Source: Rhina ancylostomus (Eukaryota). From it: 64,000 bases of DNA. Positions 5,693-63,631 of the stretch are shown piece by piece (position 1 is the first letter of the stretch; each line of letters opens with the position of its first letter). The notes under the pieces were generated by a model. That model saw nothing but the letters and a program-made list of their open reading frames with translations, was not told the origin of the DNA and ran no database searches. The translations under genes were made by a program, and so were the position numbers. The stretch spans positions 81,041,874 through 81,105,873 of the forward strand of contig JARFYF010000084.1 in assembly GCA_030265395.1 (NCBI GenBank), read 5' to 3'.

Positions 5693-5899
5693 TTACACCA
5701 CAGTGACTGCCTTCAGGTTCTGTTTGGTCTCACTGACAGTGCAATCTTCTGGGATCTTCTCCTCTGAGCAGCTCCGGCCGGAGAGTTTGTCCATTTGTTC
5801 CAAATCACTGAAACGTTCCACTATGCACTGAGCGGTGAGACGGGCTTCAGGATCATGATCCCAGCATTCCACAATAATTTCACACACCTGCTGCACAAG
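5693..5899 (-). CDS. TGFBR2: TGFBR2 exon 7, terminal coding part (LVQQVCE...[14 protein letters not shown]...[29 protein letters not shown])
   Basis: A long pyrimidine tract precedes ttttcaag|CTT. Kinase subdomain XI; TAA stop at 5695-5693. In-frame downstream CAG acceptors are possible alternatives. Confidence 0.93.
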
Positions 5900-8800
5900 C
5901 TTGAAAAGACAAGAGGGAGGGAGAGAACAATGATTACCTGAACCCAATATACTGGCTCCAATAAAAAGCCCACATGCATGTACTGTTGATACAAAACCAT
6001 CGGTTACTTTGCTTCATAAACTATTTCTCAAATTAGCCTCCAGAGAAGTTTTGTTTTTGCATGCTGATAGATTATCACGTAGGATGAAGCTTTTAGTCAA
6101 TGACTCCAGTGAAGAAGTCTCCAATAAGTTTCACCTACACCCCAGTTGCCTCGTGGGCCTGTGCTCGACATCTTGTATTACTTTAAGAAATTGAAGCAAA
6201 TAGAGGACAACTTTCACCTCTTTACTGATCAAGAACAGTCCAGGTACCTACAGGTAAATGCAGAGGACAACTGCCCTTCATGTTAACGTCATTGTGTTTA
6301 AAAAAATATTTACAAGAGTCCAGCACCCAGCAGAACAATCCTGTCAATCTCATTACCCTCATCCTTTCCCCCAAAGACCTGCAAATTATTCTGTCATATG
6401 CCCATCAATTTGCTTTTGGCTCCTTGGCCACTCAACTATACCAAGGGATAATCTATAATAGCCCATTAACCTGCCAGCACAAATTTGGGATGTTGGGGAA
6501 ACCAAAGTACCTTGAGGGACCCCTGCAGTCAAAGACAATGCATGCAAGCTTCATGCAGAGTGCGCTTAAGGTCGTGATCGAACTTGAGTCCTTAGAAATG
6601 CGAGGCAACAGCACTAACTGTTGCATCACAGTCCCATCCAAGAGAGTGCTTTCACGTAACCTTTCACATCTTTAGATCTTCTGAAATATATCCTAACCTT
6701 TTAACTCAGAAGCAGGAATATTATCACAGAATAAAGTGGAAAGGATATCTTTTTGCATGGCACCTTTTACAACCTCAGAAAATTCCAAAGTGATTTACCA
6801 CCAATGTGATATTTTTGAAGTGTGCTTAATTCAGGGATTCAGTCTGAGAGTTAATTTGTGCAAGGTGTCATGGCAACAAGGTGGATAATCGGGAAATGTG
6901 TTTTTAGGATGTGAGCAGAGGGTTAACCACCATTCAGGTCACTGGGGGAGCTCCTCATTTTGCTCCAAATCTCCTTTTCTCTCACCCTAGATGAGCATCA
7001 GCTCAGCATCTCTGACACTGCAGCATTCTCTCCATACTGCAGTTAAGCTTCAGCTAAGCGATCATGCTCGAGTTCCTGGAGTTCAAATGAGCCCAGAACC
7101 TTGTGAGAGCACTACCCCACGCCCAACCACATCTACAAGCAAAGAGTGTGGAAGGAAGTATTTTTGCTGCGTCTGGCCAATGGGCTGTTTTTGCTGCTTG
7201 TTTTTCAGTTTCCATTTGTAGTTGGTCCTGAGCTAAAAGTAAACCCACCCCAAGTCACGTTCCAGTATAGGTGCAGGGGCTGAAAGGGGCCATCTTGTTT
7301 GGTGACTCTAGGTGCTGATGTATTTCTGTGCAGGCACAAATATAAAAAGCAGGCTAACCACTGACTGACTAATTATTTACTGGTCACATCAATAGTTTTG
7401 AGTACCTGGTGATTAAGCCAGCTGTTGGGGATCTCAGGCCTGCCCCGATCCCTAAGAACAACATCCTTCATGCTTTCCACACAGGGATGCTCCCGGACTT
7501 TGGAGCCAAAGGCTGGCTCATAGTCTTTCACTTCTGTAGAGAAAGAAAAGTCAAGATACAAGATATCTTTTAGTCACATGTACATCGAAACATACAGTGA
7601 AATACATCTTTTTGCGTAGAGTGTTCTGGGGGCAGCCAGCAAGCGCCGCCAAACCTCCAGCGCCAACAACGCATGCCCACAACTTCCTAATTGGTAGTCT
7701 TTGGAATGTGGGAGGAAACCGGAGCACCTGGAGGAAACCCACAGAGATGGGGAGAATGTACAAACTCCTTAAAGACAGTGGCTGGTATTGAATCTGGGTG
7801 GAAACAGGCAAACAGTTTTGCCCAATGGAGGTACATTATTCTGAAATCCCTTCTTGTCCATTCAGGCACAGAATCAGGAAGGGAGGCTGATGTTTGGCCC
7901 CCTCCCTTCCAACAAGCTATGGATGGCAGGGATGACTGGAGCAGAGCAGATGGAGCCAGAAAAGATCTTTGATTGACAAGACTATTAACGTATCCAGGTC
8001 ACGAGGTGGAGAATTAAGCTGAGCTGAAGGCTCAGCCGTGATCTGACAGAATGGTTGAGCAGGCTGTAGGTCTGAAATGCATAGTCCAAGCTCCTACTAT
8101 TTCCAGGGCTGGGAAGCCCAAAAGGTCAGTGAATCATGGCTTGGGAAATCATTTTCCCCACTACCAATCCCATTAGTGGTGCAACTTTATATAATGTTCC
8201 TTCTAAAGCACAGTTAGTTTTCAACAGGAGCAGAATCCATAGGGAACAAATCACATATTTCGTTACGATATAAAAGGAGGCTATTTTGGCACATCAACAT
8301 GCTGGTTCACGAAGCAGTCCCATTCCTCCACTAATTTTCCATGTAACCCATTTTCTCTGTATTCCTGTCAACTCTCCACAGATTCTACTATGCACCCACA
8401 CTACAGGTAATCTACAGTGGTCAATTAATCTACCAACCCATATCTCTGGGATAGGGGAAATAAACCGGAGCACTGGGGGGGGGGGGGGGNNNNNNNNNNN
8501 NNNNNNNNNNNNNNNNNNNNNNNNNNNNNNNNNNNNNNNNNNNNNNNNNNNNNNNNNNNNNNNNNNNNNNNNNNNNNNNNNNNNNNNNNGGAGCACTGGG
8601 GGAGGGGGGGGGGTGGAAGAAATTCAAGGTCACAGGGAGAATGAGCAAATGCCAAATGGATAGGTTCGAAGGTCAGGATTGAACCCAGGTCACTGGAGCC
8701 GAAAGGGAGCAGCTCTACCTGCTGCACCAGTACACTATCCAGGTCACACCAGGTTAACAATATCCAGCTGTTACAAGCTGGTGGAACTGATCCCTGCTTA

Positions 8801-14800: not shown

Positions 14801-17800
14801 GACTACTATATGGTACCGTGGGCTTCGAAGAAATATTTGCCATTGGAAAGTTGTTTTAGGTTAATATCTGCTGAAATGCAATATTCAATCCTTGTAACCA
14901 AACAAGGTGACATGTGCTGAAATACTAAATAGACATTTGGCCAAGACTTCTCTATCCTTGGAAATAGATAAAAAGGATTTACATTGACCCAAGGAGTTAT
15001 GTGGGTTCTCATTTCATGTTTGACCGAAAAGCCAAGACAAATCACCAAATGAGCCTTTATTGACACCAATGATGATTTCTCCTCTTTGCTGAGATTACAG
15101 GGGCTGTGCATCAACAGGACAATATATGATCTGTTATAAACGTCAGCTCTTTGAAGTTTTAATGCTACTCACCGCCAACAGCTGTACATCGCGATACCAT
15201 CTCCCACAGCACAAGTGCCAGTGAATACACATCTGCCTGCTTAAATGCCTCAATGTCCTCCAAATTAATTCGTGACTCGAGCACTTCAGGTGCCATATAT
15301 CTGGCTGTTCCAACCTACAAGTACATAAAAAGGGTCAAACATGTCATGTTCATCGTTGCAATGTTGTAAAAATTGACAAGTAGAAAAATCAACCCACCAA
15401 TAACTAATACACGATTCAAATTACCTCAGACTCAGGTTAAGTTTTTAAAAAGAACAAGGGTTTATCTATAACTTTGGCCAAATTCCTTCCTCACTTCTAA
15501 GCATCAAATCTATAAGGAATCTGGCAGCCCGATCAACTGCTATTGAGAGAGTTGTGAAAAACCAGCTACTAGTTAATTGCACAGAGGCATTCCATTATGA
15601 CTTTCTCAGTTTTCATTCCTGTGGTATGGGTGTGGGTCCATGGGCAGAAAGGCATTCAATGCTGAGATGTCCAAGAAAGACAGCTCATCATTCCCTGGGT
15701 GGCAACATGTATCCATATTACATTCCCTTGTAAAACAAAATGTCACTGCTCCCACTGACAATTTCAAAATCAAGGCAAATTCTACCGATTAATGGCTGCT
15801 CTTTATTTGATTACAATGACTTCCAGGAGACCAAAGAAAGATTTCAATTTGGACTGTGACATCAAGTTTGCTTCCCGATTTACCTCAGGGAAAGCAGCAA
15901 ACATAATCAAAGGCCCCTCCCACCCTGGTCGTTCTCTCTTCTTCCCTCTTCCATCGGGCAAAAGGTACAAAAGCTCAAGAACACATACCACTAGATTCAA
16001 GGACAGCTTCTATCCCGCTGCTGAGACTCTTAAACGGACCTCTTGCACGATAAAGGTGAACTCCTGATCTCAAACTATCTCGTCATGGCCCTTGCATCTT
16101 ATTTGACTACCTGCACTCTCTCTGTAACTGTAACAATATATTCTGCATACTGTTATTGTTTTTACTTCTGTACTACCTCAATGTTGCTAATGGACTGCTT
16201 CACACACTTTTACAGGCACAGTCCAATTCCTAGAAAGATATGTTTTAACAGCGAGGGCATCAAACAGTTCTTTAAATGAATTTAGTTCCCAATTTAGTTC
16301 TTTGCCCAAAAAGTTTCGATTGATACAAAACCCAATCATGAATTACTATTATTTTGTAAAGGAATATCTTTGCAAGGCAAGGCATACCCCCACCTACACA
16401 ACATCTCGACTTCTGGCTTGTGCAATCAGTTTTATGTTTCACAAGCTCACATGCAAACACCACAACCCCGCCCACATTAATAGCCACTTTACAACAGTCT
16501 CCTGCCTTTTAGTCTGAAGCACAGCCATGAAAGTACCACAAAAGCTCTCCCAGATTTGATATCCCTTGGCATTCCCAATGGAAGTTTTAGCCTCCATTAA
16601 TGCAAAACCTAATTTAAAGTTTACCATAAGTGAGCTTACACTGCACCATTTTGGTGACATTGTTGACACAAGCTGTTAATCCTAGTTGAATTGTGGTATC
16701 ATTTCACACAGCAGAATACAACCACAATTAAATGTGGTTGCACAACACAATGGCAGGCTCATCATTACTGTCTACGTCTAAGGCTGTGAAGAGCAGTGGG
16801 ATAAACTAGTGCCCAGTTCTTTGAACTAAGACATCTAGTGCTGCTGGAAGGTCATCAACTCAGTCTTCCAGTCGACAAATGTCTTGGTCCACAATTTCTT
16901 GGTCTTCCAGCACAGTGCAATGTCTCTAAGGGAATGCTGCCAACTGGCACATTCCAGGTTGCAGGAGTACATGCTGGGGGATGGATGCAGTGATGCTCGG
17001 TGCAGCCAATGTAAAGGCTCTGTGGGGAAGGACCACAGTCAAGGCTCTTTCTGCTCCCACACATGGAGGGGCTGAGTTGGATGGGACAACCTCACAAACA
17101 CTGAAATGGTGCATCACCCCAGAGGGCCATATAAGTGCTATGGTTTAAAAGCAAGTCAGCACTACTGAATGTATTGACCATGAATGTAGAAGTTTTGCAC
17201 TCTCTTCTGTATATATTTATGAATAAAGTTTAATTTTGAAATAAAAAGTAGTTCTTTGAACTAATACCAGAATCTGCTTCTTGGGAGAGACTGAAAATCA
17301 GGACCATGTCTGTTCTCTGAGCTAGAAACAACCTGCAATGGTTTCAGGAAGAATGGGGAGTTTTCACTGGTGCTCTGGTTAACATTTATCTTTTGAACAA
17401 TATCACTTATATCTTCTGAACAATTTTGTGTAAATTGGCTATTATGTATATGTCAACACTATGACTATACTTTCACCTTAATTGGTTTACAGTACATTGG
17501 GGGCATTTCTGGGTTGTGAATGGTGCTTAATGAATGCAGGGAGGCTTCCTTATAAAAACACAACCACCAAAAATGGACTGCTGCAAGGATCCTGAATGCT
17601 TAAGAACAACATTCAGCAAGTAAATGCACACATACATGCAAGCACAGAACTCCTGGCTCAGACCAGAATGCAGTGAATCAGAGTTCCAGCCTTTCTCCCG
17701 ATGGACACTGACAAGGAGTTACAGCAGGAATCTTCTTGGAGAGACAAATAAATCTGGCCCTAATATAGAAAAACATGTGTACAATACATGCTTCCTGTGA

Positions 17801-26800: not shown

Positions 26801-29800
26801 TGGTAACAGGCCCTTCCGGCCCAATGAGTCCACGCCACCCATTTTAAACCCCAAATTAACCTACCCNNNNNNNNNNNNNNNNNNNNNNNNNNNNNNNNNN
26901 NNNNNNNNNNNNNNNNNNNNNNNNNNNNNNNNNNNNNNNNNNNNNNNNNNNNNNNNNNNNNNNNNNAAGAATAAGATCAGCCATTTGTTTAGCAAGTGTA
27001 GGGAGATGTTTTCCACTTTAACTGATGAACCATCCAGGTAACAAAGCTATCAGCTCTTATTTGCCTATGAAGTGTAAATCCATCGTTCATACACCCGTTA
27101 TATTTGCTTTTAGTTTCCTGTGTTTTAGACCTTTCAGTAACAGCCTTTACATTTTTTTGAATGTGTTTGTATTCCTTTTCTGTATTGTGGAATTTATGTT
27201 TGGAAAATTGGTTATTTTTCAGGTATTTCTGGTTGAGATGCAAGAAGTTCTATACTGGTGTTATCTGTGCCATTGTAATGTTGCCACAAGATATAGTTAC
27301 AGTATGTTATTGTCACCAAATGGGGGCTTTGCATGTTCTGTATTTCATGTTATGGTGATTGATACACCTGCTTATGCTATACATGATAGGAGATGTTCCT
27401 TGGTGCACTGTCAGGCAACAAAGATGAGATGCTGCCGACACATAGGGTACCTGTAGATGCCCACACCTAAACTGGCAATGAAACACTGAGAATTTTGTCC
27501 CTCAGCCTGTATGCTCAGTTTCCTTTGGGTTATGAATAATGCTGTACATAAGTGTGGGTCCAGTATGATTCTTGTGCTATTTCATCTAATCAGGCAGTTA
27601 ATTCCATTCAATGAAACATTCCAAGACCTAGATAACAACATAATGATGTGCTTATGGTGGACAAGTAGCNNNNNNNNNNTGCTCAAGTATTGAAAAAGAC
27701 TAACGTGCCTCAGTGTTTGGTTTCTGTGCTTGGTAAATGCTGCATTAAATCTCGTGTCTGCATTAAGTTATCGTTAACTCTCATGTGCCAGACAGATGTG
27801 TTTGCTGTCTGCCAATGGTAGCTCTTTGGAATACACCCAGATAAGATTAGTGCTAGGTGGCTGCAGGCATCCTTTCCATTCCATAAGCAAGTAGATACAT
27901 AATTTCATCCATCACGCAGACTTTCCATTTCATCAACTAACATGGTTTCCATTCCATCAATCAATCAATCTTTCCATTTCCTCCATCAGGCATTCTTACC
28001 ATTGATTAGTCAATCATTCCAGTCCATCCTTCAGACATTATTGCAACTCCATCAATTAAGCAGTCCTTCCATTCCATTCATCAGAGAGTCTTTCCATTCC
28101 ATCTGTCAGGCTGAATTTCCTTTTCTATCTGACAGGCATTCTTACCATTCCATCAATCAGACAGTCCAGTCTGTTCTACAGACATTATTGCAACTCCACC
28201 AATCAGGCAGACCATCAATTCCATTCATCCATCAAACATTTCCAAGCGTCATCCACAACTCATCAGCAATTGAAGCATTCCATGCAGCAAGACTTAGACA
28301 GTGTTCTCATGGACTGATAATTGGCAAATAACTTTCACACCACAGATGTGCCAGGCTCTGGCTACTTCCAAATAGAGGGAGTCTAACCACCTACTCTTTC
28401 GTTCATTGTCATTATTGTTGCCAAATCTTACACCTTCAATATCCCAGCATTTACCAGGAACTCATTTGGAACAGTTGGCTAAGTATGCTGGCTACATGAG
28501 CAAGTGATAGGCTGGGTAACCTGGGGTGACTGACTCACATTCCATTGCACCAAACCTCTTCCCCCTCTACAATGCCAGAAGACATATCATTCCAACAGAT
28601 TGGCATGCCATTCTGTCAGACAGGCAGGAGTGTTGTTCCATGAATTGGGCAAGTTTCAATCCTGTCAATCAATTATATTTTTTATTCTGTCCCCGAGGAA
28701 CTATCACTTCATCAATCGGGCCATCTTTTCATTCCATCAATGAGGCAGTCTTTGAATTCCATCATTCATGCGACCACTTCATTCCAGCCATTGGGCAGCG
28801 TGTCCATTCCATCAAGTGGGCAGACTTTCAAATCCATTATCCAGGCACACGTTCTTTTCCAGCCACCTGTCAGACATACTATTTAATCCATGAGGTGGTA
28901 CTTCCATTCCATCCTCCATGCAATCCTTACGCCCCCAAACATAAGGAAGTCTGTCCATTCCATCCATCAGGTGGACTGTCCAATCATTACAGACATTGCA
29001 TTCCATGGATCAGTCAGTCATTCTGTTCATCCAGCAGAATTTCCATTCCATCATTCATGCAATTAATCCATCAGGTAGACCTTCTATCCTTTGGACAGAT
29101 TTGCCATTCTATTAATCAGACCAACATGCCTCTGCATTGATCAGACTAACATTCCCATGTTGAATTTCATTGAAAACTCCTCATCAAATGAAACATTCGT
29201 GCCTGCTTGCAGAAAGTCATACTGACAACAGTCATACTGAGACAACATACTGACATGGATTGCTTATTGGCAAATATTTACACCACAGTAATGCAAGGCT
29301 ATTCACACAACATAATTGTAAGGCTATGACCATCTCCAACAATGATATTCCCACCATCATCCTCTGATGTTTAAGGAAATTATCACTGATAAATTCTACA
29401 CTGTCAATAGTCTAGCATTTACCAGGAAATGAACTACACTAGCTATGTAAGTGTGATGGCTACAAGAGTGGGTTATAAGCAGAGTATCTGGGGTGATTGT
29501 GTCACTGCTGACATGCCAAAGCTTTGCCACCCTCTACAAATGCCATTCCATTAGACAGACATACCATTTCCATCAATCTCCCATGCCAGTCTATCAAGCT
29601 AGCATACTGTTCTATCAGGTAAGCATGCTATTTTATCAATAAGATTTGTTTTTTTTTTAATTTTACTTACAGCGTGGTAACAGGCCCTTCTGGCCCAACA
29701 CGTCCACACCGCCCATTTTAAACCCCAAATTAACCTACCTGTACGTCTTTGGAATGTGGGAGGAAACCGGAGCACCCGGAGGAAACCCACGCAGACGTGG

Positions 29801-32800
29801 GAGAACGTACAAACTCCTTACAGGCAGCGACGGGAATCAAACCCGGGTCGCTGACGCTGTAATAGCATCGTGCTAACCACTACGCTATCGTGCTGCCCCA
29901 ATATTATCCTTAATTTGTTGTTTACTTTGCACAAGTGTATGTATAATTTATATTAATTTAAATTTGTTAACTTGGTTGTCATTTGTAATGTAATGTACTG
30001 CTGCTGCAAAGAGCTAATTAACATAGCATTTATACCATGCACGTATGCCCATGACAATAAACGAAATTACTTCTGTTACAAACTTCCTGTAAGTTGTTTA
30101 GCTAATCTTTCAGTTTTACATACTGGTAGAAGTCAGATTCAACAGTGCAAGCTTGATATCAAATTGAGCACCTCCATTTGGCCTTCCTTCCATTTTTGGA
30201 CATTCTTTAGGCCCCCCTTCAGAGTCCTGCCCACAACATACATTTCTGAAAAGAGGAGGCAACTTTGCTACATGGAGAGAACAGGGCAGTAAAAGACTAG
30301 TGATAGATTTAATAGAGGTGGTCCAATCTCAAGGTGTTTTGATAAGGAGGGAATGTTTCCACTGGCAGATGGATCAGTAGTTGGAGGACACAGTGGTAAA
30401 GTGGCTATAGAAACAGCTGGGAGATGAGAACTTAGACTCAGTGAGTTGCTATCATTTGAAATGGACTATCAGAAAGGCTGGGGAAAATCAGATTCGATTG
30501 TAACTTTCAAAACAGATATATAGCTTAAAGAGAAAGTGCTGCAGCCCTGTGGGACAAGCAGTGTATGACAATCAGGATAGCAGTTTTAAAATATTGACAT
30601 AGCCTGATGGGCCAAATGGCCTTCTCCTTTGCTCAATGATCCTGTAAGCTACTTCCATGTTACAATGATCATTGAAGAAAATATATCCACTGTAATAAAA
30701 TCATGCATAGACAAATACCTCGATCTACAGTGACTCTCAAAACAGTTAAAAGCTGCTTGGAAGATCTCCTGCTTACTTACTTCTGGATGGGTGATTTAAC
30801 TTTGAGCTGGTGGCAAGTTCCACGATAGTAGCACAAGCAGCTCATTCTGTATGCACGCCAAGCCTATTAAAGAGCATTGATCTGCTGGCTGAATGCCTGT
30901 TTACTCTCAGTGATTAATGCAAAACAGTGACATCAATTAGGTGTCCAATACCAGAGTCCTCGTCTGACAAAAGTCAGCCTTTTAGTAATGCCTAATACGC
31001 TGTGCATGTGGGCTTTCAAATATGTTTGTCAAAGTATCAACATCATAGACTTGTTAGCTGGTAGGATTAAATGGACTGTGGCAGTGTGGATATGAATTTG
31101 GCCATAGGACAAGGATAGGTGGTACATGGCTGTTCTCAGGCTGAAAAGAGACATACAGAGGTGTTCCACAGCAGTCAGGATGAGGATGATTGCTCTTTTT
31201 GGTCTCTCAATTTTAAAATCTGTAGGTGACACATAACCAAAAAACATAGTGAGTAGATCTTCAGAAGGGCACAGAGACAGGAATGAGTAAGAAGAACAAG
31301 GAAAGCCATAAAATACACCATGCTATTTTGAATCAGGTGTAGCAACCAAGGAGATGGAGTTGTATGTAGGTGGTGGGATAACTTGAAGTTTAAAAAAAAC
31401 AGGGCAAGGGATCTTTAGTTTATGTACTGAGGCATAGAATGCAAATGATATTAAACCTTTCTCAATCATAGGTTATGCACCCAGATGGAAGACGGTGCTC
31501 AGTACTGAACACCATACCTTAGGAAGGCTCTAGAGAGAGTGCAGAAGAGATTTACTGGAAAGTTGACTTGAACGTGGAGATGGCTCAGTACAGTTAACAA
31601 GTTTACTGAGGAGACAGAAATCAGAAGTGCTGTTGATAGTGAGGAGGATAGTCTCAGGGAGCAGAATGATACTGATCAGTTGGTAAGATGGGCAGAGCAA
31701 TATCAAATGGAATTTAATCCTGGTGAGTAATAAGGCTCAGAGATACACACTGAACGGTAGGGCCTTTGGGAGTACTAAGGAACAGAGGAATTTTCGTTAA
31801 AAAGTCCAAAGATCTTTAAAAAGGTGGCAGTACAGGCAGATAGGATACTTGCCTTCATTAACCAGGCATAGAATATAAGAGCATGGGAGGTCACAGTATA
31901 AAACACTGGCTAGGCCATAGCTGGAGTAATGTGTACAATTCAGGTCACCCACCCTACAGGAAGAATATGACTGCATTGGAGAGGGTGCAGGGGATGGAAT
32001 GCTTCATATACAAGGAGAGACTGGATGGCTGGGTATGTATTCCTTGGATTGAAGCTGGCCAAGGTGGGACCTTGTTGAAGTATACAGTACATAATTATGA
32101 GGGACACAGATAGGGTAAATAGTTGAAAACTTTTCCCCGTAGCAGGGGCATCTAAAGCTCTCTTGCAACATACAAGTATTTACATAAACACTTGAACCAC
32201 CAACACATACAAGTCTACACACCAACTACTAGTAAATGGGATTAGTACAAATAGGTACTTGATGGACATGAAGCAAAGAGCCTGTCCTTGTGCCACACAT
32301 AATGCAGAGATGCCAGACTTGGTGCAGAGAAAACTTTAACAGGAGATGATGTAAATGAAGAACAGATGGAGTAAATGAAAAGAAATAGCAGAGATCACAG
32401 AGTTAACATAAGAGGACCAGAATCAGAAGCTTTTGTTTCAATAGAGCAACTGTGATGATTTGACCTGGGAGGTGGGAAGGATGATTCCACCCATTTCCAC
32501 AGAAAGTTTCTTCCAAATTTATTTATTTTTTAAATTGACTTTTCCTCAGAGACCACAGGAGCTACGGAAGAATCCTGGGTTGAACACATCCAACACCTGC
32601 TTCACTCACTCAACACAACTTTTCCCAAAGAGTTTACCAGCAGGTGTTAGGATCCCAATCAACACATGCAGCGTGCTAAATGTTGTTGAAGCTAATGGGT
32701 GGCCTAAAAATAGACCTGAGAAATGCAACAGTGGCACAGATTAGCTGCAGGATGTTGCATTGGTATTTCAGTCAGCATTGTGGCTCAGAAACAGGCACAA

Positions 32801-35800
32801 AGACAACAAAATCCAATGGCGAGGTGTTACAAGCACAAAGGTATGTCGATAGGAACAAAGCACATGACCTTCCACCATGGCTAAGGGACCAAATGAACAG
32901 AGGCAAAGCAAGCCTGAAAAATCCTGAAAAATAAACTACAAGCACAGAAGCATCCAGAACCAGCCTGGAATCAAATCCCACCAGCAGCAGAATAAAGCAG
33001 ACAGGGTTAGGGGCAGGGTTAGATCTGCGGAGTTAGCGTTAGGTCAAATCCTACAGTTTTAGCAGGAGGCTATGAACGAGATTATTCCTGTAGTTTTAAA
33101 CTGAGATTAGGGACAGGGTTAGTTCTGCTGTAATAGGATACAAGGTTCATGGGTAGGATTAGTCCTGCAGTTAGAGGCTGTAGAGTTATGGGCAGGATTA
33201 GTACTGCAATTATAGACTGAGTGGTTTAGGGATACAGTAAATCCTGCAGTTTTAGGCTGTGAGGTTAGGGGCAGGGTTAGCTCTGCACATACTGGCTCTC
33301 AGGCAAGGGAAGGATTAATTGCACAGTTACTGGCTCTCAGTGGCTAGAGACAGGACAATTATAGGTTGTGGAGCTACAGGTAGGTTAGTCATGACTATAG
33401 GTTGTGGAGTTAGGATGGGGCTCTGTAATTGCAGGAGTGACCCTGCCCCTAACCCCAGAACCTGTAACTGCAGGACTAATCCTACCCCTAACTGCACACA
33501 ATACTCCAAAGTGCTGCCTAACCAGTGTTTTATAAAGTTACCACATAACCTCCCAACTCTTATATTCATGCTCTGACCTACAAGGTAAGCATGCCATATG
33601 CCTTCTACACCACCCCATCTAACTCTGTTGTCACTTTCAGGGAACTACGGACTTGAACACCAAGGTCTCTCTGTTCTTCAGCATTCCTTCATTCCCAATC
33701 ACTTACTGTACATGCTCTGCCCCTTTATGACCTTCCAAAATGCATCATCTTGCACTTGTCAGGGCTAAATTCTATTTTCTAATGTGTCACGCAACTTTAC
33801 ATCTGATCTTTATCCTACTGTAGCCTTGGGCAAGTTCCTCGCTACCCACAACACCTCTAACTTTCCAGTGATATTCAACACTAAAATATAGGTTTTCACT
33901 GCTGGAATCCCAGAATTGGAGCTGGAGAGGGAAGGTCACTTGGCTCATTGAGCCTGTGCCAGCTGTCTGAAAGTGTTTTAGTGATATCCAATCCCCCTTG
34001 AAACTTTTTATTGTACCTGCTTCCTTCGATCATTGAAGCAGTAAACAACAAATCCCCTCCTAAAATTTCCGGTCTGCTGCCAATTAATTTAAAACTGCGT
34101 ACTCTGATTGCTGACTCTCCAGCCAATGGAGACTTCTCCTTAAAATTTTTTGCAAACTATTAATGTGCCCTTAGCTTATTCTGCTCTAATGAGAAAATTA
34201 CAGGTTTCTCAAGCCTCTATAGAACTGGTAATATTCTAGTAAATCCACATTGGATAATATAGAAAGAAGTGACTTAAATGGAATACAAATATTGTGGGAA
34301 GGTTATTTTTATTTTGTTCAGTATTTTTGCACTGCTATTGGCTGTAAACCTGAATGTTGTGTAGCCAGTCAACACGTGCCCAGCCAGGACTTGCTTTCTC
34401 CAAGGGTTTCGGGTTTGAAGGAAGAAAACCCAAGAGGCATTCCCAGAGTGTGGAATCAGGCCCTGTATAACTTTGCAGGAAGACAGTGCTCCATACAACA
34501 GAACCAAGAGCAACCTATCGGAAAGTACTTGATAATTATGGTCAACAACAATGCACTGTTACACAGCACCTTTGCATCATAAGGTACTTTGAAGGAGTAT
34601 AAATCAAAAATCATTTGACAGAACCATAGCTGAGTCATTAGGATAGGTACTCAAAAGCTGAGCAAGGGGATTGATAGAGAGGTGAAGGTTTATAGCAGAA
34701 ATTCCTGAGCTTGGAATAGCTTGAGGAGATGAAGGCTTGCACTCACCTGTCCACTGTTGGCCAAGTCATCTATGGACAGAGATGACTCCAGCCGCACGGA
34801 CAATCCACAGTCACACAGGCAACAGGTCATGTCATTTTTCACCAGTATGTTGGAGCTTTTGAGGTCCCGGTGAGCAATGGGAATCTTTGGCCTACCACAG
34901 GGGGTGTATTCACTGTGCAAGTGGGCGATCCCTCGGGCTAGTGATCCACCTAACAGGCACAGATCCTCCCAGCTCACAACGTGCCTCAGCAGGTAGTCTT
35001 GCAGGTTGCCCTGTGGGTGATAAGCGGTGATCAGCCAGTATTGCTTGCCCATTTCCGTATCACGCTCCTCTGCTGTCAGGAACTGCAGCACATTCTCGTG
35101 CTTCAGGTTGACGTCAGAGCAGATCTCTTTCTCATTCTTCCACGACACATACTCATCGAAGTGGAAGATCTTTGCAGCCACTGTCTCAAACTGTTCGGAG
35201 GTGCTCTGCCGTAGCTTGGCCTTGTAGACCTCAGCAAAGCGGCCCTTGCCTACTACGCCATCCAGCTCCAGGGGCAGCAGCTCAGTGTTGTGGTTGATGT
35301 TGTTGGCACAGGTGGAGCTGATATCAGACTGGTCGTCGTCCAGACGAATGGTGCAACCTTCGCTCCGGTCAATCGGCCCCCGGAGCCGATGGCCCGCCTT
35401 CTTGACCTTCTGATCCTTTGCCCACTCTCTGTTCAGGCTCCTCCGTCTCTGGACCCGGTACAAATAATAACCGAGGATCACCACAGAAGCAATGACGAGC
35501 AGTGGGACGAGCGTGACGAGGACCACCTCGGTGATCAGCTCCTTTTCCAGGTTGTCATCTAAAGTAGATGGATACCAGCAGAGTTGTAACAAAGTAAAGC
35601 AGCCACAATCAGAGCTTACAAAGTAAATCTCTTGAACTGAACATTGAAAACAGGAATTTGGCCAAAACTCAGCCCTCTTAGTTAAGTGTGATCTCCCCTG
35701 AAGGAACACCATATCAAAACAAAACAAATTACACATCTTATGAATGGATCTGGGATTATCAATATTGACCGGTTCTGGTGCATTTGAGCAAAAGGGAATC

Positions 35801-38800
35801 AACGGGGCATTCCAGCTCCTGTAGGTGACACAGGCATCTGGACCTGTTGTCAACTATCTACCTACTGGTTAATCCCTGGGCTCTTAGAAGTGGAGACCCT
35901 GCCTCTTTTTTTTGGAGAATGATGCATTTTTCTTGCTTAACTTTAATACTTAGAAGTTGAGAGTTAACACAGATGACCGTGTCAGTGACTTTACTTACCT
36001 TTTAAATTTTCCAGTAATCCAAGGAACTTTGCCCAGTCTATAATTTTGAGTAGGTTTTTGAAAACAAAACATCTCATCTAACACTCTTCCACATGTACTT
36101 CTTGAATTAAGACTGCATTAGCCACATCTCAACAGCTGTCCTGTGGCTTTGAGGTCAGAAAGTTATGGGTTTAAATCTTGGCACAAGAGGCTTGAATACA
36201 GAATTTTGGCAAATAGTCCCATACAGCACTGGGGGAGTGCCGCACAGTCAGAAGGACTTTCTCTCAGTTAAGATTTTAAATGTCAGCCTCTTTTTTTGAA
36301 AAGTGAATTCAAAAGTTTTCACTGGAATATTTCAAAGTACAAGGTCCTCATTCTTGTATTAGCCAACAATTATTTGAAACAACCATTTCTAATCCACATC
36401 ATCTGATCATCATCACATTTCCACTTGCAAGACCTGGCTGCGTGCAAAGTGGGTACCTTCCTGTGTCACCTCCAAAAAGTGCAAGATGCCTTGGGAGATC
36501 CTGAAGAAGGAACAACATAAATGCAAGCAGTTCCTGTAAAAGTGTGTGGAAAGGAATGAACCAAGCAACTCTCATCACTCTCACCATTCAGTGATGTGTC
36601 TTCAATGGAAGAATACAGCTCAGAAATTGGAAACAAACATGGCCACATCCATAGTGAAACCAACAGAGCATTACAGGACAACATGTTTATAGTACATGGA
36701 TCACATAGGACTATCAGAACTTCTAAGAACAGTGCCTGTTTCCTGTTATGAATCAAAACCTAGATGGCTTAAAAAGGAATGAATGGCACTAAGAGGCCCA
36801 GTCAGATATCCATATTAGAAACTGCAAGGCAAATCCAACACCAAGCACACTGGTTGCAATATCCTCTCAGGAGTTGTAAGCGGTGGTTAAAGCCTTATGT
36901 TTTTACACTTTGCTAGTGAACCATTAATTTTTTTTTAAAAAATCCCTACCTTTTGTATTTAGACTTGATGGGTTAACATGGGTCAATACTGCCTACAAGT
37001 TTACGAGAGCAGTGGAAAAATAACCATGTCTGCTGCAAATCACTTACTCCTGGCAGTAATCCCAAATGGGTTGCTAATAGGAATTGAGCCTAATTTATTA
37101 TATATTTGGGATTAGGTGTTCAACTCACCTGCTGGGAGACAGACATCTTGTAACAATCCCTCATGCACCTCCAAAGAAAACTATCTCACTACTTCAACCT
37201 CCACAGAAACTTTCAACAACAGTATTACACAGATCCAGGGATAGGTTTGCCAGTTCTGATTCATTAATCTTGACATTTCTTCCCCCCTTTTCAGTATTTC
37301 ATAAATATACAAGGAATGAAAAGTACAACTTCTCTCACGGTGGTGCCCAGGAGATTAATTTTTAATTCTAGAGCATTTCAGCACAATCCTGAAAGAGTGA
37401 CAACCCTGAATAGTAAAATAATTGCTTTAAAATGAAGACTACGTCATATTTGTATTATGACAACCACCAATTGATATGAGAGTAGTATAATACAAAAGAG
37501 GCTTATAAAGGTGGGCAAATCCCCAGGACCTGACCAAACCATTATTGGAAGCAAGGAAAGAAATTGATGGGGCCCTGGCAGACTTTTGTACCTTCATTAG
37601 CTATGGGTGAGGTACAGGAACACTAGAGGGTGGCTAATGTTGTGCCTTTATTTAAGGATAATGTTGTGTCTTTATTTAAGGAGGACTGCATGCACAAGCT
37701 GGGGAACTACAGGCCAGTGAGCCAAACATCAGTGGTGAGTAGCTTATTGGAGGGGATTCTACCTACATTTGGAAAGGCAAGGATTGATTAGAAATAGTCA
37801 GCATGACTTTGTGCTTGGGAGATAGTGCCTCATGAATTTAATTTTTGTACTGAAGAGATGACCAAGAGGATTGACAACAATAGGGTAGTTGATGTTGTCT
37901 ACATGGATTTTAGCAAGGCTGTTGACAAGGTCCTGCATGATAGGTTGGTCTGGAAGGAATCACACACAGAATCCAGGGTGAGCTAGCCAACTGGATACAA
38001 AATTGGCTTGGTGGAAGGAGTCAGAGGTTTGTAGTGGAGGAATATTTTTCAGATTGGAGGCCCATGACCAGTGGTGTGCTGTAGGGATTAATGCTGAGTC
38101 CCTTGTTGTTTGTCACATACATTAACAATTTGGACGAGAATGCAGATGACACCAATGTTGGTGGTGTAGTGGACAGTGAAGAAGGTTGTCTAAGATTACA
38201 AAAGCAGCTAAATCAACTGGAAAAGTGGACAAAGGAATTGCAGATAGAACTTAACTCAGACAAGTTGCAAAGTGATATACTTGGGAAGTTAAACCAGGGC
38301 TCGATGTACACAATGAGTGGCAGGGCCTTGTGAAGTGCCATACAAGAGGGAGAACAAAGAATACATGTACAGGTACATGTTCCTCAAAAGTGGAAACACA
38401 GTGAGACGGAGTGATGAAGGCGGTGTATGGCATGCTTGCCTTCATCAGTCAGGGTACTGAGTATAAGAGTTGGGTAACATCATGTCAGTTGCACAAGATG
38501 TTGGTGAGAATGCAAGTGGGGTATCGTGTGCAGTTCTGGTCACCAGACCATAGGAACAATGTGATTAAGGGTGCAGAAAAGATTCAAAAGGACGAAGGGC
38601 TTGAGATACAAGGAGAGGCTGGATACGCTGGAACTGTTTCCCCCCCCCCCCCCCCCCCAGAGTAAAGGTGGTTGAGGGGTGACCTCAGAGGTTTATAAAA
38701 TGACAAGGGTCACAGGCAGTCTTTTCCTGGGCCAGGGGAGTCCAAAACTCTAAACAGAGCAGGATAAGTTTTGTTCTTTACACAGAGGGTGGTGGATATC

Positions 38801-44800: not shown

Positions 44801-47800
44801 ACTATAATAGCTCACATTTATATTCCATCTTTAAGATAGCAAAACATTGAACCACTTTACAGGAGCACTACTGAACAAAATTTACCACAGGGCCACATTA
44901 GGAAATGACATGAACAAATGCTTTGTCAAAGAGGAAGTTCTAAGTATCCTGAAAATAGGATGAGGGGTGGAAAAGGTTTAAATGGAATCCAAGGTCAAAG
45001 CTCAGTGCGGCTGAAGGCACAGCTGGCAATATTGGAACAACTAACTTTAGGGGTGATCAAGAGGTCAGAATTGAGTGGAATAAAATATCTCTGATGGTTA
45101 CAAGGTTGGAATGGAATATCTTAAGATGTTGTGAGAAGTAGAAATAGTAGTTTGGAAGGAAACTCTTGAGTTTAGCTCCAGGCAACTGAAGGCATGAATT
45201 TCAGAAATTGCAATGGAAACCAAGGATATGCCCAAGGCCAGAGTTGGAGATGTGAAGATCTGAGAACTGTGGGCTGGAGCAGGAATAGTGATGAAGGCAA
45301 AGCAAAACTTCTGAAAAAAAATTAATCACATCAGCAAACAAATTTCATCTTCTGATGCAACTCACCAGCCGTGAATATCAGTAGGTCATTACATTCTGCC
45401 ACCTTTGAGCATGAGCAAATGTAGAACAAAGAACCTTGAGCCTTCTTTTCTTTCATCTCACATTTCGTATTATTGTAGTCATCCAGTAGGTGTCCATACA
45501 GAGGGATTAATGGATTGTGGCACAGAGTTTCTACAGTTATGTTGGCATCTTGCTTCCTCCTGCAGTTTAAGTAAAAACAGAAGCCTTTAAAATTAGAGAG
45601 AGGTAAACAGGAAAAGAGATCTAATATGCGAGGTACTGGGAAGAGGCAGGACGCTCGATGCAATTATTGTATAGGTTTTGCTTATTCAATATTGCCAGAA
45701 CTCTAAGCTCTGCAGGTCTTGGGCTTCCTTTTAATCTTTCGCATGTTTAAAATGATCAAAGAATTCATTAACATTGGTCCAGGAAAAAAAACCTGTTGGA
45801 AGCAGCCAAAATAAAAGGCCACAATGTTCAAATTAAAATATCCATTCTTAAAAGGGATTACGGAAAAACTTCAAGGGGCAGTAGAAATTGAGGATTTTCT
45901 TCCCTGAAAGGCAGTGAATGCTGGGTCAATGGGAGTTCTGCAGAACGATAGACGTTCTGGTTAAGGTTACCAACTTAGTATGGAGGAGAGGGCAGACAAA
46001 TGGAACTGAGGTAAAGACAAGACAGAATTGCAGATTTCATCTAACCTGTGTGGGAAAAACTTCACTCCAAGTTGCACTCGGCTTACCATTATGGCCCTCT
46101 TTATGGATTCCAACACCAGAAGGGATTGTATCTCTGGATTTTCCTTCTTGAAATGTGTTCTTATTTTAAATACTTCTCTTTGGTCATCCCTCAACCTTCC
46201 AAACTCAGATGAATACAATCCATTATGCTAATGGTGTTGTTATTCATTTAACCTCAAGGTCTTCAATGAGAATAATTTTTTCCCCCCAGAATCACATGAT
46301 AGATCTTGCCCTTTCACCCATGCTTATCAATAAATCAACAAACAATCATTAGGAAGAGATAAATGAATCTTCAATTACCATGTCTTGCATCTTGCCTCAG
46401 CATCACCATACTAATTATTGAAGATTGCTTGGTAAGCAGCATCCACTATTACCTACTAGCAGTAACTAATAATAATTCCTAATGAAGGAGTTGCCATTTA
46501 TGTAATGACTTATGGCCTCTAAAACACCTTACAGCCACTTAAGTATTTTTGAAGTCTCTGGAATGTGGCAGCTACCTTGAGAGCCCTCAAATAGCAATGA
46601 GATAAATGGCCAGATCTTTTGTTTCCAATCACTGGTTATTATATAACTAAAAGCCAAAACTCAAATAGCACCTTAGTGATGAAGACCCTCACTACAGAAA
46701 AGTCAGAATGAAAGGAGGAAGGCTATTACCAGATTGAGACACAAACTTCGTCCCTGCTCTCACAGATAGAGCTCTTGCTGCAGTTACTCATACAGGAGCC
46801 AACACTGGTGCAATTAGAAGGTTGGGTGTCACAGAACCGGCAGAGTTCATTGAATTGCATCATGCCACCAAGAATATTGCCTTTGTGTTTCCCTGGAAAA
46901 GAGAAAAGTGGAAATAACAAGATTTAAACTTCCAGGGGAAAAAAAAAATCAGTCCTTCCTTGCTAAAAATAACTGGAAAACAGACACATTGAAAAATCAT
47001 CAAATTAATCTCTTGTCTGGGAGGAATAGTTTTATAAATGCAATGCAGGAGATATCTACGAGCTGGGTTTAAAACAAATCAGTCTCCCTTTTGGTGTGCA
47101 AATTTGCTCTGTTCAAGGCAGCATCCAAATTCCTTTTAATAGTTACTCATGAATCTAGTTCTAATCTCTACAAACAAAACATTGCTACTCTCAATTCAAC
47201 TGAGAAAATTCTCCAGAACAAATTCTTTAGCAAATTACCTTAAATCAATGTCTTCTGGTTACAGATTCACCTAGAGTCTAACTAAGTGGTGCAATTGCCA
47301 ATCCTAAAATCATGCCTATTTAGAATATTCCCCTACATTTTGCTCAAATTGCTTTTATACCCTTGTGCCCCTGTGCCACAATGCAACTGTACATTGAAAG
47401 TAATTGCACTTTAAAATTGTCATTTTAAAAAAGTCCGATATTTTAGACTGACAATTTGGTTTCATTAATGCAGCTAAAAAATCATAAAAACACATAAAAT
47501 TAGTCTCATTTTTCAGTGACCAATTTTTAAAAATGCTAAACAAGACTTATAAATATACAGAAACCTTTCCTGGTCATTGTGGCATACCATTGTTAATTTA
47601 AAAATAGAAGTGCTTTTAAAACTGTGCCTGATTGTGCCCTGGCACCTGAACAAAATGGGTTCATTCTTGGAGTTTCCTCAACAGTCTGTAAACAACAGTT
47701 AACACAAGGTCCCAAAGGTGATTAAAATCGAATGGGGTGTGTGACCATTTTTGTTACTGAGGGCAGCTTCTAGCACAGTGTTTCAAACTACTGCAGAAAA

Positions 47801-62800: not shown

Positions 62801-63631
62801 ACCAATGCACACAGCCCATGCTTATCGCAGCACAAATAAACTGCCCACCTTAAAACTTTTATTATTGCATAACACAGCTACCTATACAACTGTGCCAATG
62901 AATACAGCCCACACTTACTGCTGCACTAAGACAGTCCACTTTGGTTAATGGACAAAACACAACACAGCCCACATTTGCTATTGCACAAAATAAACAGGGA
63001 GTTCACCTTTAGTGTACCACGGAAAGCACAGTGCACTTTTACTATAAATACAAAACCAGCTCACCGTTACAACCGTGCTAATGAACACAGCCCAACTTTT
63101 AAAATAACACGCATTAATACAATTACCTTTAGAACTGTGCTAAGTAACACAGACCACCTTAACTATTGAACAAAAAACCAGCCACCTTTACAACTGTGCT
63201 ATTAAACGCAGCCCACCTTTAGAAGTGTGCCAAAAACACACAGCACCCCTCCCCTTTGCCCAGTTCCGCCCCCAATAGGCAACACAAAGCTGGTGCACAT
63301 TTCTAACCCGGGACAGGGGTTGCCCCCTTGCACCAGTCCAAGTGTGCAGACTGAAGCCAGCTCCAGTTCCCCTCACCCCAAAATTGAGTTGGGCTACGCC
63401 CTGCTGTGCTTATAGGCTGCACTCGATGGCTGTCAACTGCAGCCCGGTGCCGCTCTGCTCTCCCATCTCCTGAGCTTTGCCTCAGCCCGGACTGTGAGCG
63501 CTGCGACCCGCGTTCCACCATCCCGAGGGCGCCGCGGTGCCCTGAGCAAACTTACCGCAAGCCCGGAAAACGTCTGAAAACCCCAACGCTGTAAATAAAG
63601 CGACGACCCAAAAGGAATCCATCAGTCCCAT
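5693..63631 (-). CDS. TGFBR2: TGF-beta receptor type-2 (or TGFBR2-like paralogue), whole spliced gene, 7 coding exons, 573 aa
   Basis: Exons of 76+163+194+812+142+128+207 = 1722 nt join in frame with GT-AG boundaries (intron phases 1,2,1,0,1,0). The product has a signal peptide, a 12-Cys ectodomain ending in CSC..ECND, a TM helix, and a Ser/Thr kinase ([36 protein letters not shown]). It has no GS box, so it is a type II receptor. Orthologue versus paralogue cannot be settled without synteny or phylogeny. Confidence 0.93.
7406..7533 (-). CDS. TGFBR2: TGFBR2 exon 6 ([43 protein letters not shown])
   Basis: Acceptor tctacag|, donor CAG|GTACT, 128 nt. Near-identical to canonical TGFBR2. Confidence 0.96.
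7551..7825 (-). mobile_element. V-SINE with a different (Rex1-like) 3' tail, abutting the exon 6 acceptor
   Basis: Same V core as the copy at 29649. The tail ends ...CACTGTATGTTTCGATGTACATGTGACTAAAAGATATCTTGTATCTTG. Confidence 0.75.
8270..8735 (-). mobile_element. V-SINE spanning an assembly gap
   Basis: aaaccggagcac core and aggattgaacccaggtcactggagc (reverse-complement B box). Confidence 0.6.
9398..10515 (-). mobile_element. CR1/HER1-like LINE ORF2 (RT) fragment, frameshifted
   Basis: Peptides [21 protein letters not shown]...[41 protein letters not shown] and [14 protein letters not shown]. Confidence 0.9.
15173..15314 (-). CDS. TGFBR2: TGFBR2 exon 5 ([47 protein letters not shown])
   Basis: Translated by hand (absent from the ORF track). 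Acceptor ttgtag|, donor G|GTGAGT, 142 nt, kinase subdomains VIII-IX. Confidence 0.96.
15885..16190 (+). mobile_element. Rex1/Babar-like LINE 3' end
   Basis: Peptide [44 protein letters not shown]. Confidence 0.75.
16830..17249 (+). mobile_element. 5'-truncated Tx1/L1-clade LINE with a 15-bp target-site duplication
   Basis: C-terminal ORF2-like peptide [32 protein letters not shown] and an A-rich tail. AGTTCTTTGAACTAA occurs at 16815-16829 and 17250-17264. Confidence 0.75.
19450..19718 (-). mobile_element. V-SINE (HE1-like)
   Basis: ggaggaaaccagggcac core and aggattgaatctgggtcgctggagctg head. Confidence 0.65.
19840..21160 (+). mobile_element. Decayed CR1-like LINE (RT to 3' end)
   Basis: Remnants of [18 protein letters not shown] and LFTVCINDL; ends in cctacttctgctcctatttcttatg. 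Confidence 0.75.
21975..22280 (+). mobile_element. Penelope-like element 3' remnant (related pieces at about 51120-51320 -, 53040-53345 +, 58080-58170 +)
   Basis: tttaattctccatcccactc...gaggaacagcac...ctcaattcaacaatttcag and the shared atttccagcatctgcagt terminus. Family assigned from recall. Confidence 0.45.
22490..24840. mobile_element. Cluster of CR1-like fragments in both orientations (about 22490-22850 +, 22870-23900 -, 24220-24840 +)
   Basis: Peptides [12 protein letters not shown] and LNFGREN on the minus strand; cagcatggatttataaagggtagg on the plus strand. Confidence 0.6.
25058..25405 (-). mobile_element. Rex1/Babar-like LINE 3' end
   Basis: caagtttattgtcatatgcacaagt tail and aagcagctgttcctgaacctgg...ctcctgcctgatggtag. 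Confidence 0.65.
26790..26866 (-). mobile_element. 3' end of a young V-SINE running into a gap
   Basis: Near-identical to 29665-29740. Confidence 0.7.
27870..29640. repeat. Degenerate TTCCATTCCATC-rich satellite (unit about 23 bp), twice interrupted by the same LINE fragment
   Basis: Recurrent ttccattccatc(a/c)atcag(g/a)cag(a/t)c units. Confidence 0.75.
29649..29899 (-). mobile_element. Full-length, young tRNA-derived V-SINE (HE1-like)
   Basis: On the minus strand: A box TAGCGTAGTGG, B box GGTTTGATTCCC, V-domain core GGGTTTCCTCCGGGTGCTCCGGTTTCCTCCCACATTCCAAAGAC, CR1-like tail GGGCCAGAAGGGCCTGTT and poly(A). CpGs are retained. Confidence 0.85.
31390..32290 (+). mobile_element. Decayed CR1-like LINE 3' portion
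   Basis: ggatacttgccttcattaaccaggcatagaatataagagc; peptide [12 protein letters not shown]. Confidence 0.7.
33000..33495. repeat. Degenerate minisatellite (unit about 36-39 bp) with GGGTTAGGGGCAGGGTTAG core; last units inverted
   Basis: Repeated ttagggg/acagg(g/a)ttag..ctgcagtt, then ccctgcccctaacc...aactgcaggactaatcctacccctaac from about 33441. Confidence 0.8.
33495..33860 (-). mobile_element. CR1-like LINE fragment
   Basis: aactgcacacaatactcca...agcatgccatatgccttct is the reverse complement of KAYGML...LEYCVQ. Confidence 0.65.
34747..35558 (-). CDS. TGFBR2: TGFBR2 exon 4 (TM helix, juxtamembrane region, kinase up to LANSGQ)
   Basis: Acceptor tttag|, donor CAG|GTGAGT, 812 nt. Contains [56 protein letters not shown] and [12 protein letters not shown]. 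Confidence 0.96.
36140..36590 (+). mobile_element. Ancient Deu-domain-like SINE (relatives at about 6750-7120 -, 26220-26560 +, 39370-39630 -, 54050-54340 +)
   Basis: agaaagttatgggtttaaat...cagcactgggggagtgccgcacagtcag...agattttaaa, followed by an L2-like tail. Confidence 0.45.
37500..38965 (+). mobile_element. CR1/HER1-like LINE, 5'-truncated and decayed
   Basis: Peptides [57 protein letters not shown] and [15 protein letters not shown]; tail ttctatgatgtatgac. Confidence 0.88.
41340..42070 (+). mobile_element. Old CR1-like 3' fragment
   Basis: aaatgcaagtgttacattttgg and cagagtgtggagtcaggaatgcac. Confidence 0.55.
42400..44270 (+). mobile_element. CR1-like LINE (endonuclease remnant plus 3' part), interrupted by an opposite-strand element
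   Basis: attacagaaacatggctgcag (ITETWL) and ggggtggccttg; peptides [27 protein letters not shown] and [12 protein letters not shown]. Confidence 0.7.
43792..44080 (-). mobile_element. Rex1/Babar-like LINE 3' end nested in CR1
   Basis: Reverse complement of the family at 15885 (RARTTRL..., gtgacaataataaaccaatacc tail). Confidence 0.65.
45366..45559 (-). CDS. TGFBR2: TGFBR2 exon 3 (ectodomain: [16 protein letters not shown]...KCEMKEKK...[18 protein letters not shown])
   Basis: Acceptor ctgcag|, donor G|GTGAG. Contains the Cys box CSC..ECND. Confidence 0.95.
46730..46892 (-). CDS. TGFBR2: TGFBR2 exon 2 (ectodomain: ...[41 protein letters not shown])
   Basis: Acceptor ttttccag|, donor TG|GTAATA. 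Cys spacing matches the TGFBR2 LCKFCD...CMSNCSITSICE...EVCVAVW pattern. Confidence 0.95.
51810..52280 (-). mobile_element. Non-LTR retroelement fragment of a second family (also at about 1255-1570 -, 28310-28575 +, 29255-29545 +)
   Basis: Peptide [36 protein letters not shown], a LINE RT C-terminal region. Clade uncertain. Confidence 0.65.
53792..54058 (-). mobile_element. Rex1/Babar-like LINE 3' tail (same family as 25058)
   Basis: gtttattgtcatatgcacaagt...ggttcaagaac...gaagtagctgttcttgaa. Confidence 0.6.
54350..54875 (-). mobile_element. CR1/HER1-like LINE 3' end
   Basis: accaaaactgaacacaatattcc, accaccctctgggtgaaaa and ggaaacaggccatttggccc. Confidence 0.8.
55350..55650 (-). mobile_element. 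Degenerate V-SINE
   Basis: caggccctttggccca tail and gtctttgagagttaggaggaaacc core. Confidence 0.5.
62550..63310. repeat. Degenerate tandem array (unit about 30-35 bp; consensus near ACACAGCCCACCTTTACAACTGTGCTAATAA) at the start of intron 1
   Basis: About 20 recurring acacagcccac...actgtgc units. Confidence 0.75.

Follow-up and report, generated by a model that had tools for sequence, protein, structure and literature searches.

Does Rhina ancylostomus possess a type II TGF-beta receptor kinase in which the DFG motif's phenylalanine has been replaced by cysteine, or does this replacement exist only in its draft assembly? The question arises from a window of 64 kb (the whole stretch of DNA that was analysed), whose plus strand reads tcc aca gtc at positions 34804-34812; read from the minus strand, in the frame of exon 4, these bases are GAC TGT GGA (Asp-Cys-Gly), exactly as the original prediction had it. 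The locus is most likely the ordinary TGFBR2 of a sawfish relative with three suspect bases, and the weights that we give to this and to the other explanations are judgements informed by the counts reported below.

The identity of the gene was established from its structure and its phylogeny. Seven minus-strand exons, which take up the whole window (Table 1), join to 574 codons (a 1722-nt CDS without internal stop) and have canonical GT/AG splice ends throughout. The Pfam domain PF08917 (ecTbetaR2) scores above cut-off on exons 2 and 3 and the Pfam kinase domain is found in exons 4-5; exon 4 matches the human TGFBR2 kinase structures (PDB 7DV6, 5E8V and 8YGZ) with an E value of 1e-99, the two kinases being colinear and having in common the CCLCD segment and all catalytic residues. 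In an IQ-TREE phylogeny of 27 proteins, the window protein is sister (99/96) to Pristis pectinata TGFBR2 (XP_051872120.1, P0125), on a short end branch (0.018) and within a TGFBR2 clade supported at 100/100. The paralogue TGFBR2L, which is present in batoids, has the same domain layout and keeps both the DFG and the alphaC Phe, forms a separate clade (100/100), and this identity was rejected for the window gene; TGFBR2L is described as a product of the 2R duplications that was lost in mammals (PMC13187141). A pseudogene was likewise rejected, there being no stop, frameshift or splice loss and no scattered neutral change. Judged from its sequence, the gene is a true, complete, seven-exon TGFBR2 orthologue and not TGFBR2L, in agreement with the original prediction, which had also named TGFBR2 and argued against a pseudogene. 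The Pristis protein, also of 574 aa and 97.7% identical, is the closest relative that we found: a search of short protein fragments gave 104 matches, none of them above 83% identity. Isoform X2 of Pristis starts with a different first exon, which was matched on the minus strand at 63300 to ~63215, where the first 16 residues are identical; since the frame is lost after these residues, this predicted exon is, as far as the reading frame tells, not conserved as coding in the window.

Table 1. Coordinates of the TGFBR2 exons and of the private exon-4 codons in the window.
Feature	Position	Strand	Description
Exon 1	63556..63631	-	Start codon, signal peptide; tblastn with Pristis P0125; GT donor
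Exon 2	46730..46892	-	Ectodomain; Pfam ecTbetaR2, E 6e-11; AG/GT ends
Exon 3	45366..45559	-	Ectodomain; Pfam ecTbetaR2, E 1e-22; AG/GT ends
Exon 4	34747..35558	-	Transmembrane, juxtamembrane, kinase up to activation loop; Pkinase match for kinase part
Exon 5	15173..15314	-	Identical to Pristis
Exon 6	7406..7533	-	Identical to Pristis
Exon 7	5693..5899	-	Stop codon included; identical to Pristis
Codon 395, TGT (Cys)	34807..34809	-	RS2 of the spine, the DFG Phe (F398 in human); T>G at base 34808, context T[T>G]T
Codon 291, TGC (Cys)	35119..35121	-	alphaC Glu+4, assigned to RS3 from the PKA spacing (F294 in human); T>G at base 35120
Codon 399, GTG (Val)	34795..34797	-	DFG+3 (L402 in human); T>G or C>G at base 34797
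Codon 203, CTC (Leu)	35383..35385	-	Ile in five close batoids; A>C; variable juxtamembrane site

The receptor had been described as otherwise intact, with a single TTT to TGT change accounting for the DCG motif, and this description proved incomplete. The kinase domain is identical to that of Pristis at 298 of 301 residues, and the differences are Phe395Cys and two further private changes, Phe291Cys and Leu399Val; Pristis has Phe, Phe and Leu at these positions, as does the human receptor (F294, F398 and L402; window residue numbers are the human ones minus 3, and human K277, E290, D397 and F398 are numbered as in PMC5300139). All three lie in exon 4, and each puts a G into the coding strand, in two cases at least by T>G; the Leu399Val base is 11 bases away from the DFG change. 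A fourth private change of exon 4, Ile203Leu, is an A>C and belongs to the same substitution class as T>G. The nine differences from Pristis outside the kinase are spread over the signal peptide, the ectodomain and the juxtamembrane region.

Columns 291, 395 and 399 are invariant in the 120 best of 742 homologues and in 22 named chondrichthyan species; among these species 54 kinase columns do vary, and none of them carries a change of the window. In a wider set of 375 proteins (many of them redundant isoforms; one of the searches behind the set supplied 120 of its 393 matches), column 395 is Phe in all 338 homologues with a residue there, with one gap and the other proteins falling short of the column. 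The alignment of chondrichthyan TGFBR2 and TGFBR2L proteins that had been proposed as a check thus gave a DFG Phe in every sequence covering this column. Column 291 holds Phe in 364, Tyr in five, Leu in two and Cys in none of 371 proteins, and column 399 Leu in 319, Ile in 16, Met in two and Val in none of 337, although Val occurs at the equivalent position of ACVR2B. The DFG Phe is also invariant among the type II receptors examined here, including ACVR2A and ACVR2B; the broader claim that it is nearly invariant across the TGF-beta receptors does not hold, as DLG is the motif of the family's type I receptors (PMC5578689). Three features that might be taken for private changes were rejected as such: the beta3 motif (codons 272-274) reads AAK in the elasmobranch TGFBR2 examined, against AVK in the human and Callorhinchus proteins, and the batoids examined share both Leu447 and Ile531.

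The catalytic apparatus is complete, as had been proposed: beta3 Lys274, alphaC Glu287, HRD 374-376 with its Asp, the catalytic-loop Asn, DFG Asp394 and APE 423-425 are all present, so that the loss of the catalytic Lys or Asp that marks a pseudokinase is not observed. The regulatory spine, to which the DFG Phe does belong (PMC3797032), is another matter. Spine residues were assigned by the spacing known from PKA (E91/L95; PMC3797032) and not by coordinates; the spine residue next after RS2 (the DFG Phe) is RS3 (PMC3797032), and because alphaC Glu+4 matches the PKA spacing we assigned residue 291 to RS3. Two of the three kinase changes therefore place Cys at adjacent spine positions. As assembled, RS2 and RS3 are both Cys, with RS1 His374 and RS4 Phe304 kept, and the kinase lacks the large hydrophobic RS2 of an assembled regulatory spine, which is true of the animal only if the bases are real. 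The CCLCDC cluster, which had been put forward as a mark of redox sensitivity, gives no sign of a new redox function, because CCLC is ancestral, being present in human TGFBR2, and its last Cys alone is new.

It is reported in PMC3797032 that PKA is fully active with Leu at RS2, whereas Ala, Gly, Asn or Asp abolish its activity (Asn loses >95% and Gly >99%), that Gly at RS3 costs ~15% and leaves ~85%, and that Cys occupies RS2 in 0.04% of ~13,000 kinases. The DLG of the type I receptors and the active RS2 Leu variant of PKA indicate that RS2 need not be Phe, but Leu is a large aliphatic residue, unlike Cys. If DCG is real, the receptor would probably be strongly impaired rather than mildly attenuated, unless the change is compensated; going by the PKA mutants (PMC3797032), the term attenuated, used in the original prediction, is probably too mild. 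A literature search, with most subscription papers and the variant databases outside its scope, returned no published F398C, F294C or DCG kinase, and one paper names F398, merely as a distance marker.

Judging from the pattern of bases, we consider it probable that DCG and the alphaC Cys, together with the nearby Val, arose as errors of the consensus where coverage of the draft is thin. The animal would then have an ordinary, active TGFBR2 with DFG, and A:T>C:G miscalls from two-colour sequencing, in which G is the absence of signal, would not have been out-voted at the thin coverage of a short-read draft. That the assembly is a draft is directly visible: 13 N-gaps (2400 N) interrupt the window, contigs end in poly-G runs at two gaps (8489 and 52895), and a 23-base flank is repeated across the gap at 8489, with G in one copy and A in the other. 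Poly-G contig ends and short flanks repeated on either side of 100-N gaps (8476-8612, 52870-52995 and 21544-21671) are scaffolding scars of a short-read draft. Which platform was used, how deep the local coverage was and that an error occurred are our inferences. On the coding strand, T>G is required for either Phe>Cys change, and T>G or C>G for Leu>Val. The window differs from Pristis at seven other places explained by a single step; six of these are transitions, as are 62% of the 165 mismatches between nine repeat pairs of the window. A:T>C:G makes up ~8% of the divergence of these pairs (half of the 27 mismatches, out of 165, that fall in the AC/GT class), and T>G in two of two changes has a probability of 0.006-0.03 under neutral spectra, a value that makes decay, private alleles or a pseudogene copy less likely. 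The DFG change was ascertained, being the reason for which the site was reported, and the probabilities given below for the other changes are conditional on it.

The same substitution class is known as a sequencing artefact. T>G/A>C is described as a recurrent artefact of two-colour Illumina (NovaSeq) instruments, commonest in N[T>G]T (PMC13218037), and A/C and G/T swaps as the commonest HiSeq errors (PMC3334598); the T[T>G]T of the DFG site fits the former context, the poly-G contig ends are a further likeness to two-colour data, and a single poor read would fit a pair of changes only 11 bases from each other. Several observations nevertheless sit less well with error. The published T>G artefact is one of low allele fraction in deep human data and not of consensus sequence, and its rarity is said to leave germline calls unaffected when depth is conventional (PMC13218037); because it is negligible at ordinary depth, a very low local depth must be assumed. 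Exon 4, moreover, lies inside a gap-free piece of 15 kb (27680-42910) and not at a contig end. The sites of Phe291Cys and Ile203Leu are outside the NT[TG] context, which thus fits one of the two certain T>G sites of the kinase, and would fit the third site if the ancestral Leu codon was TTG; a metagenome scan gave 12 loci of 36-65% identity, none near enough to yield this codon. The G.G error context (PMC8138829) was rejected, no site having G.G. The 11-base pairing of changes is weakly significant (P 0.05-0.10) and their confinement to exon 4 is not significant (P 0.33). Among sequencing runs, 24 from 10 studies were listed as sharing words with the locus, the best two containing 0.57 and 0.49 of 91 words and no RNA run being among those listed; these shares speak neither for nor against the bases. 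An assembly error, which the original prediction had itself named as the case against it, is still the best-supported reading, and would serve as a warning that a draft fish genome may, through T>G miscalls, display what looks like a striking change of motif.

A real and fixed remodelling of the spine, in which the stacked Phe residues of RS2 (DFG) and RS3 (alphaC) both became Cys and DFG+3 became Val as a co-evolved set, appears unlikely from the sequences compared, yet it is the alternative that we take most seriously. It stays alive because of the low probability of a second spine change, the misfits of context and the Val of ACVR2B. Of the three kinase changes, two bring one and the same residue to neighbouring positions of the spine, for which the chance is 0.005-0.065 given the first: two more random errors of the same class would touch another spine residue with P 0.038-0.065 and would give exactly RS3 Phe>Cys with P 0.005-0.011. 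Nor does the shared T>G provide independent evidence against selection for Cys, because Phe changes to Cys in one step only by T>G, and the catalytic residues, the splice sites and the other 298 kinase residues are untouched, as under continued selection. The active conformation would be weak by default, and thiol chemistry, such as a disulfide between RS2 and RS3, might lock or release it; TGFBR2L, which batoids carry (PMC13187141) and in which the DFG and alphaC Phe are intact, could act as a buffer. This paralogue is, however, known from other batoids, neither Rhina ancylostomus nor Pristis being among them; the double Cys has no precedent in 338 TGFBR2/TGFBR2L sequences; and both the rarity of Cys at RS2 and the abolition of PKA activity by small RS2 side chains speak against it (PMC3797032). 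The short end branch leaves little time for three linked changes. The cytosol is reducing, which we counted against the disulfide. If true, one lineage of sawfish relatives would have a natural DCG kinase with every catalytic residue kept, in which a link between the two cysteines completes or locks the spine; a receptor kinase that was constitutively active would have become redox-gated, with TGFBR2L as back-up. Were the bases real, a rule that holds for nearly all kinases would have a natural exception in a receptor central to development, the paired RS2/RS3 cysteines would allow a direct test of a spine built or gated by thiol chemistry, and the interpretation of human TGFBR2 variants at F398 and F294 would be helped.

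A haploid assembly displays a single allele, and the assembler may have picked a real but private deleterious haplotype (heterozygous or somatic, perhaps from one clustered T>G event), whose kinase-impaired receptor with intact ectodomain would be a hypomorph or a dominant negative; pathogenic human missense alleles beside the motif (C394W, H377P, D379V and N384K; PMC5300139, Table 1) illustrate that such alleles exist in single individuals. We regard this as quite improbable, three linked missense changes of a rare class at invariant columns, with none elsewhere in the kinase, being very unlikely as standing variation. There is a slimmer chance that the 15-kb piece with exon 4 is a decaying duplicate, scaffolded instead of the working copy: the private kinase changes are all in this exon, which has its own gap-bounded piece, and exons 5-7 are identical to Pristis, but decay should give mostly transitions, as in the repeat pairs, exon 4 shows no stop, indel or splice damage, and the confinement is, as noted, compatible with chance. 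Just as improbable, in our estimate, is the explanation closest to the idea of the original prediction, an early and fixed degeneration to an attenuated or decoy receptor as selection relaxed and TGFBR2L took over. The paralogue is indeed found in rays, skates and sharks; in the chondrichthyans examined, however, both genes are kept with intact spines, and relaxation predicts scattered, transition-rich changes at tolerant sites, whereas none of the 54 variable kinase columns (22 species) is changed in the window.

Two further observations were made. Rhinoraja longicauda TGFBR2 (P0128), from a further annotated batoid assembly, has two private changes of its own at highly conserved kinase columns, Arg367Cys and His478Gln (window numbering). 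In intron 5 of the window gene, broken reverse-transcriptase-like frames lie on the minus strand at 9401-10628, which from their motifs look like a CR1/L2-type LINE fragment.
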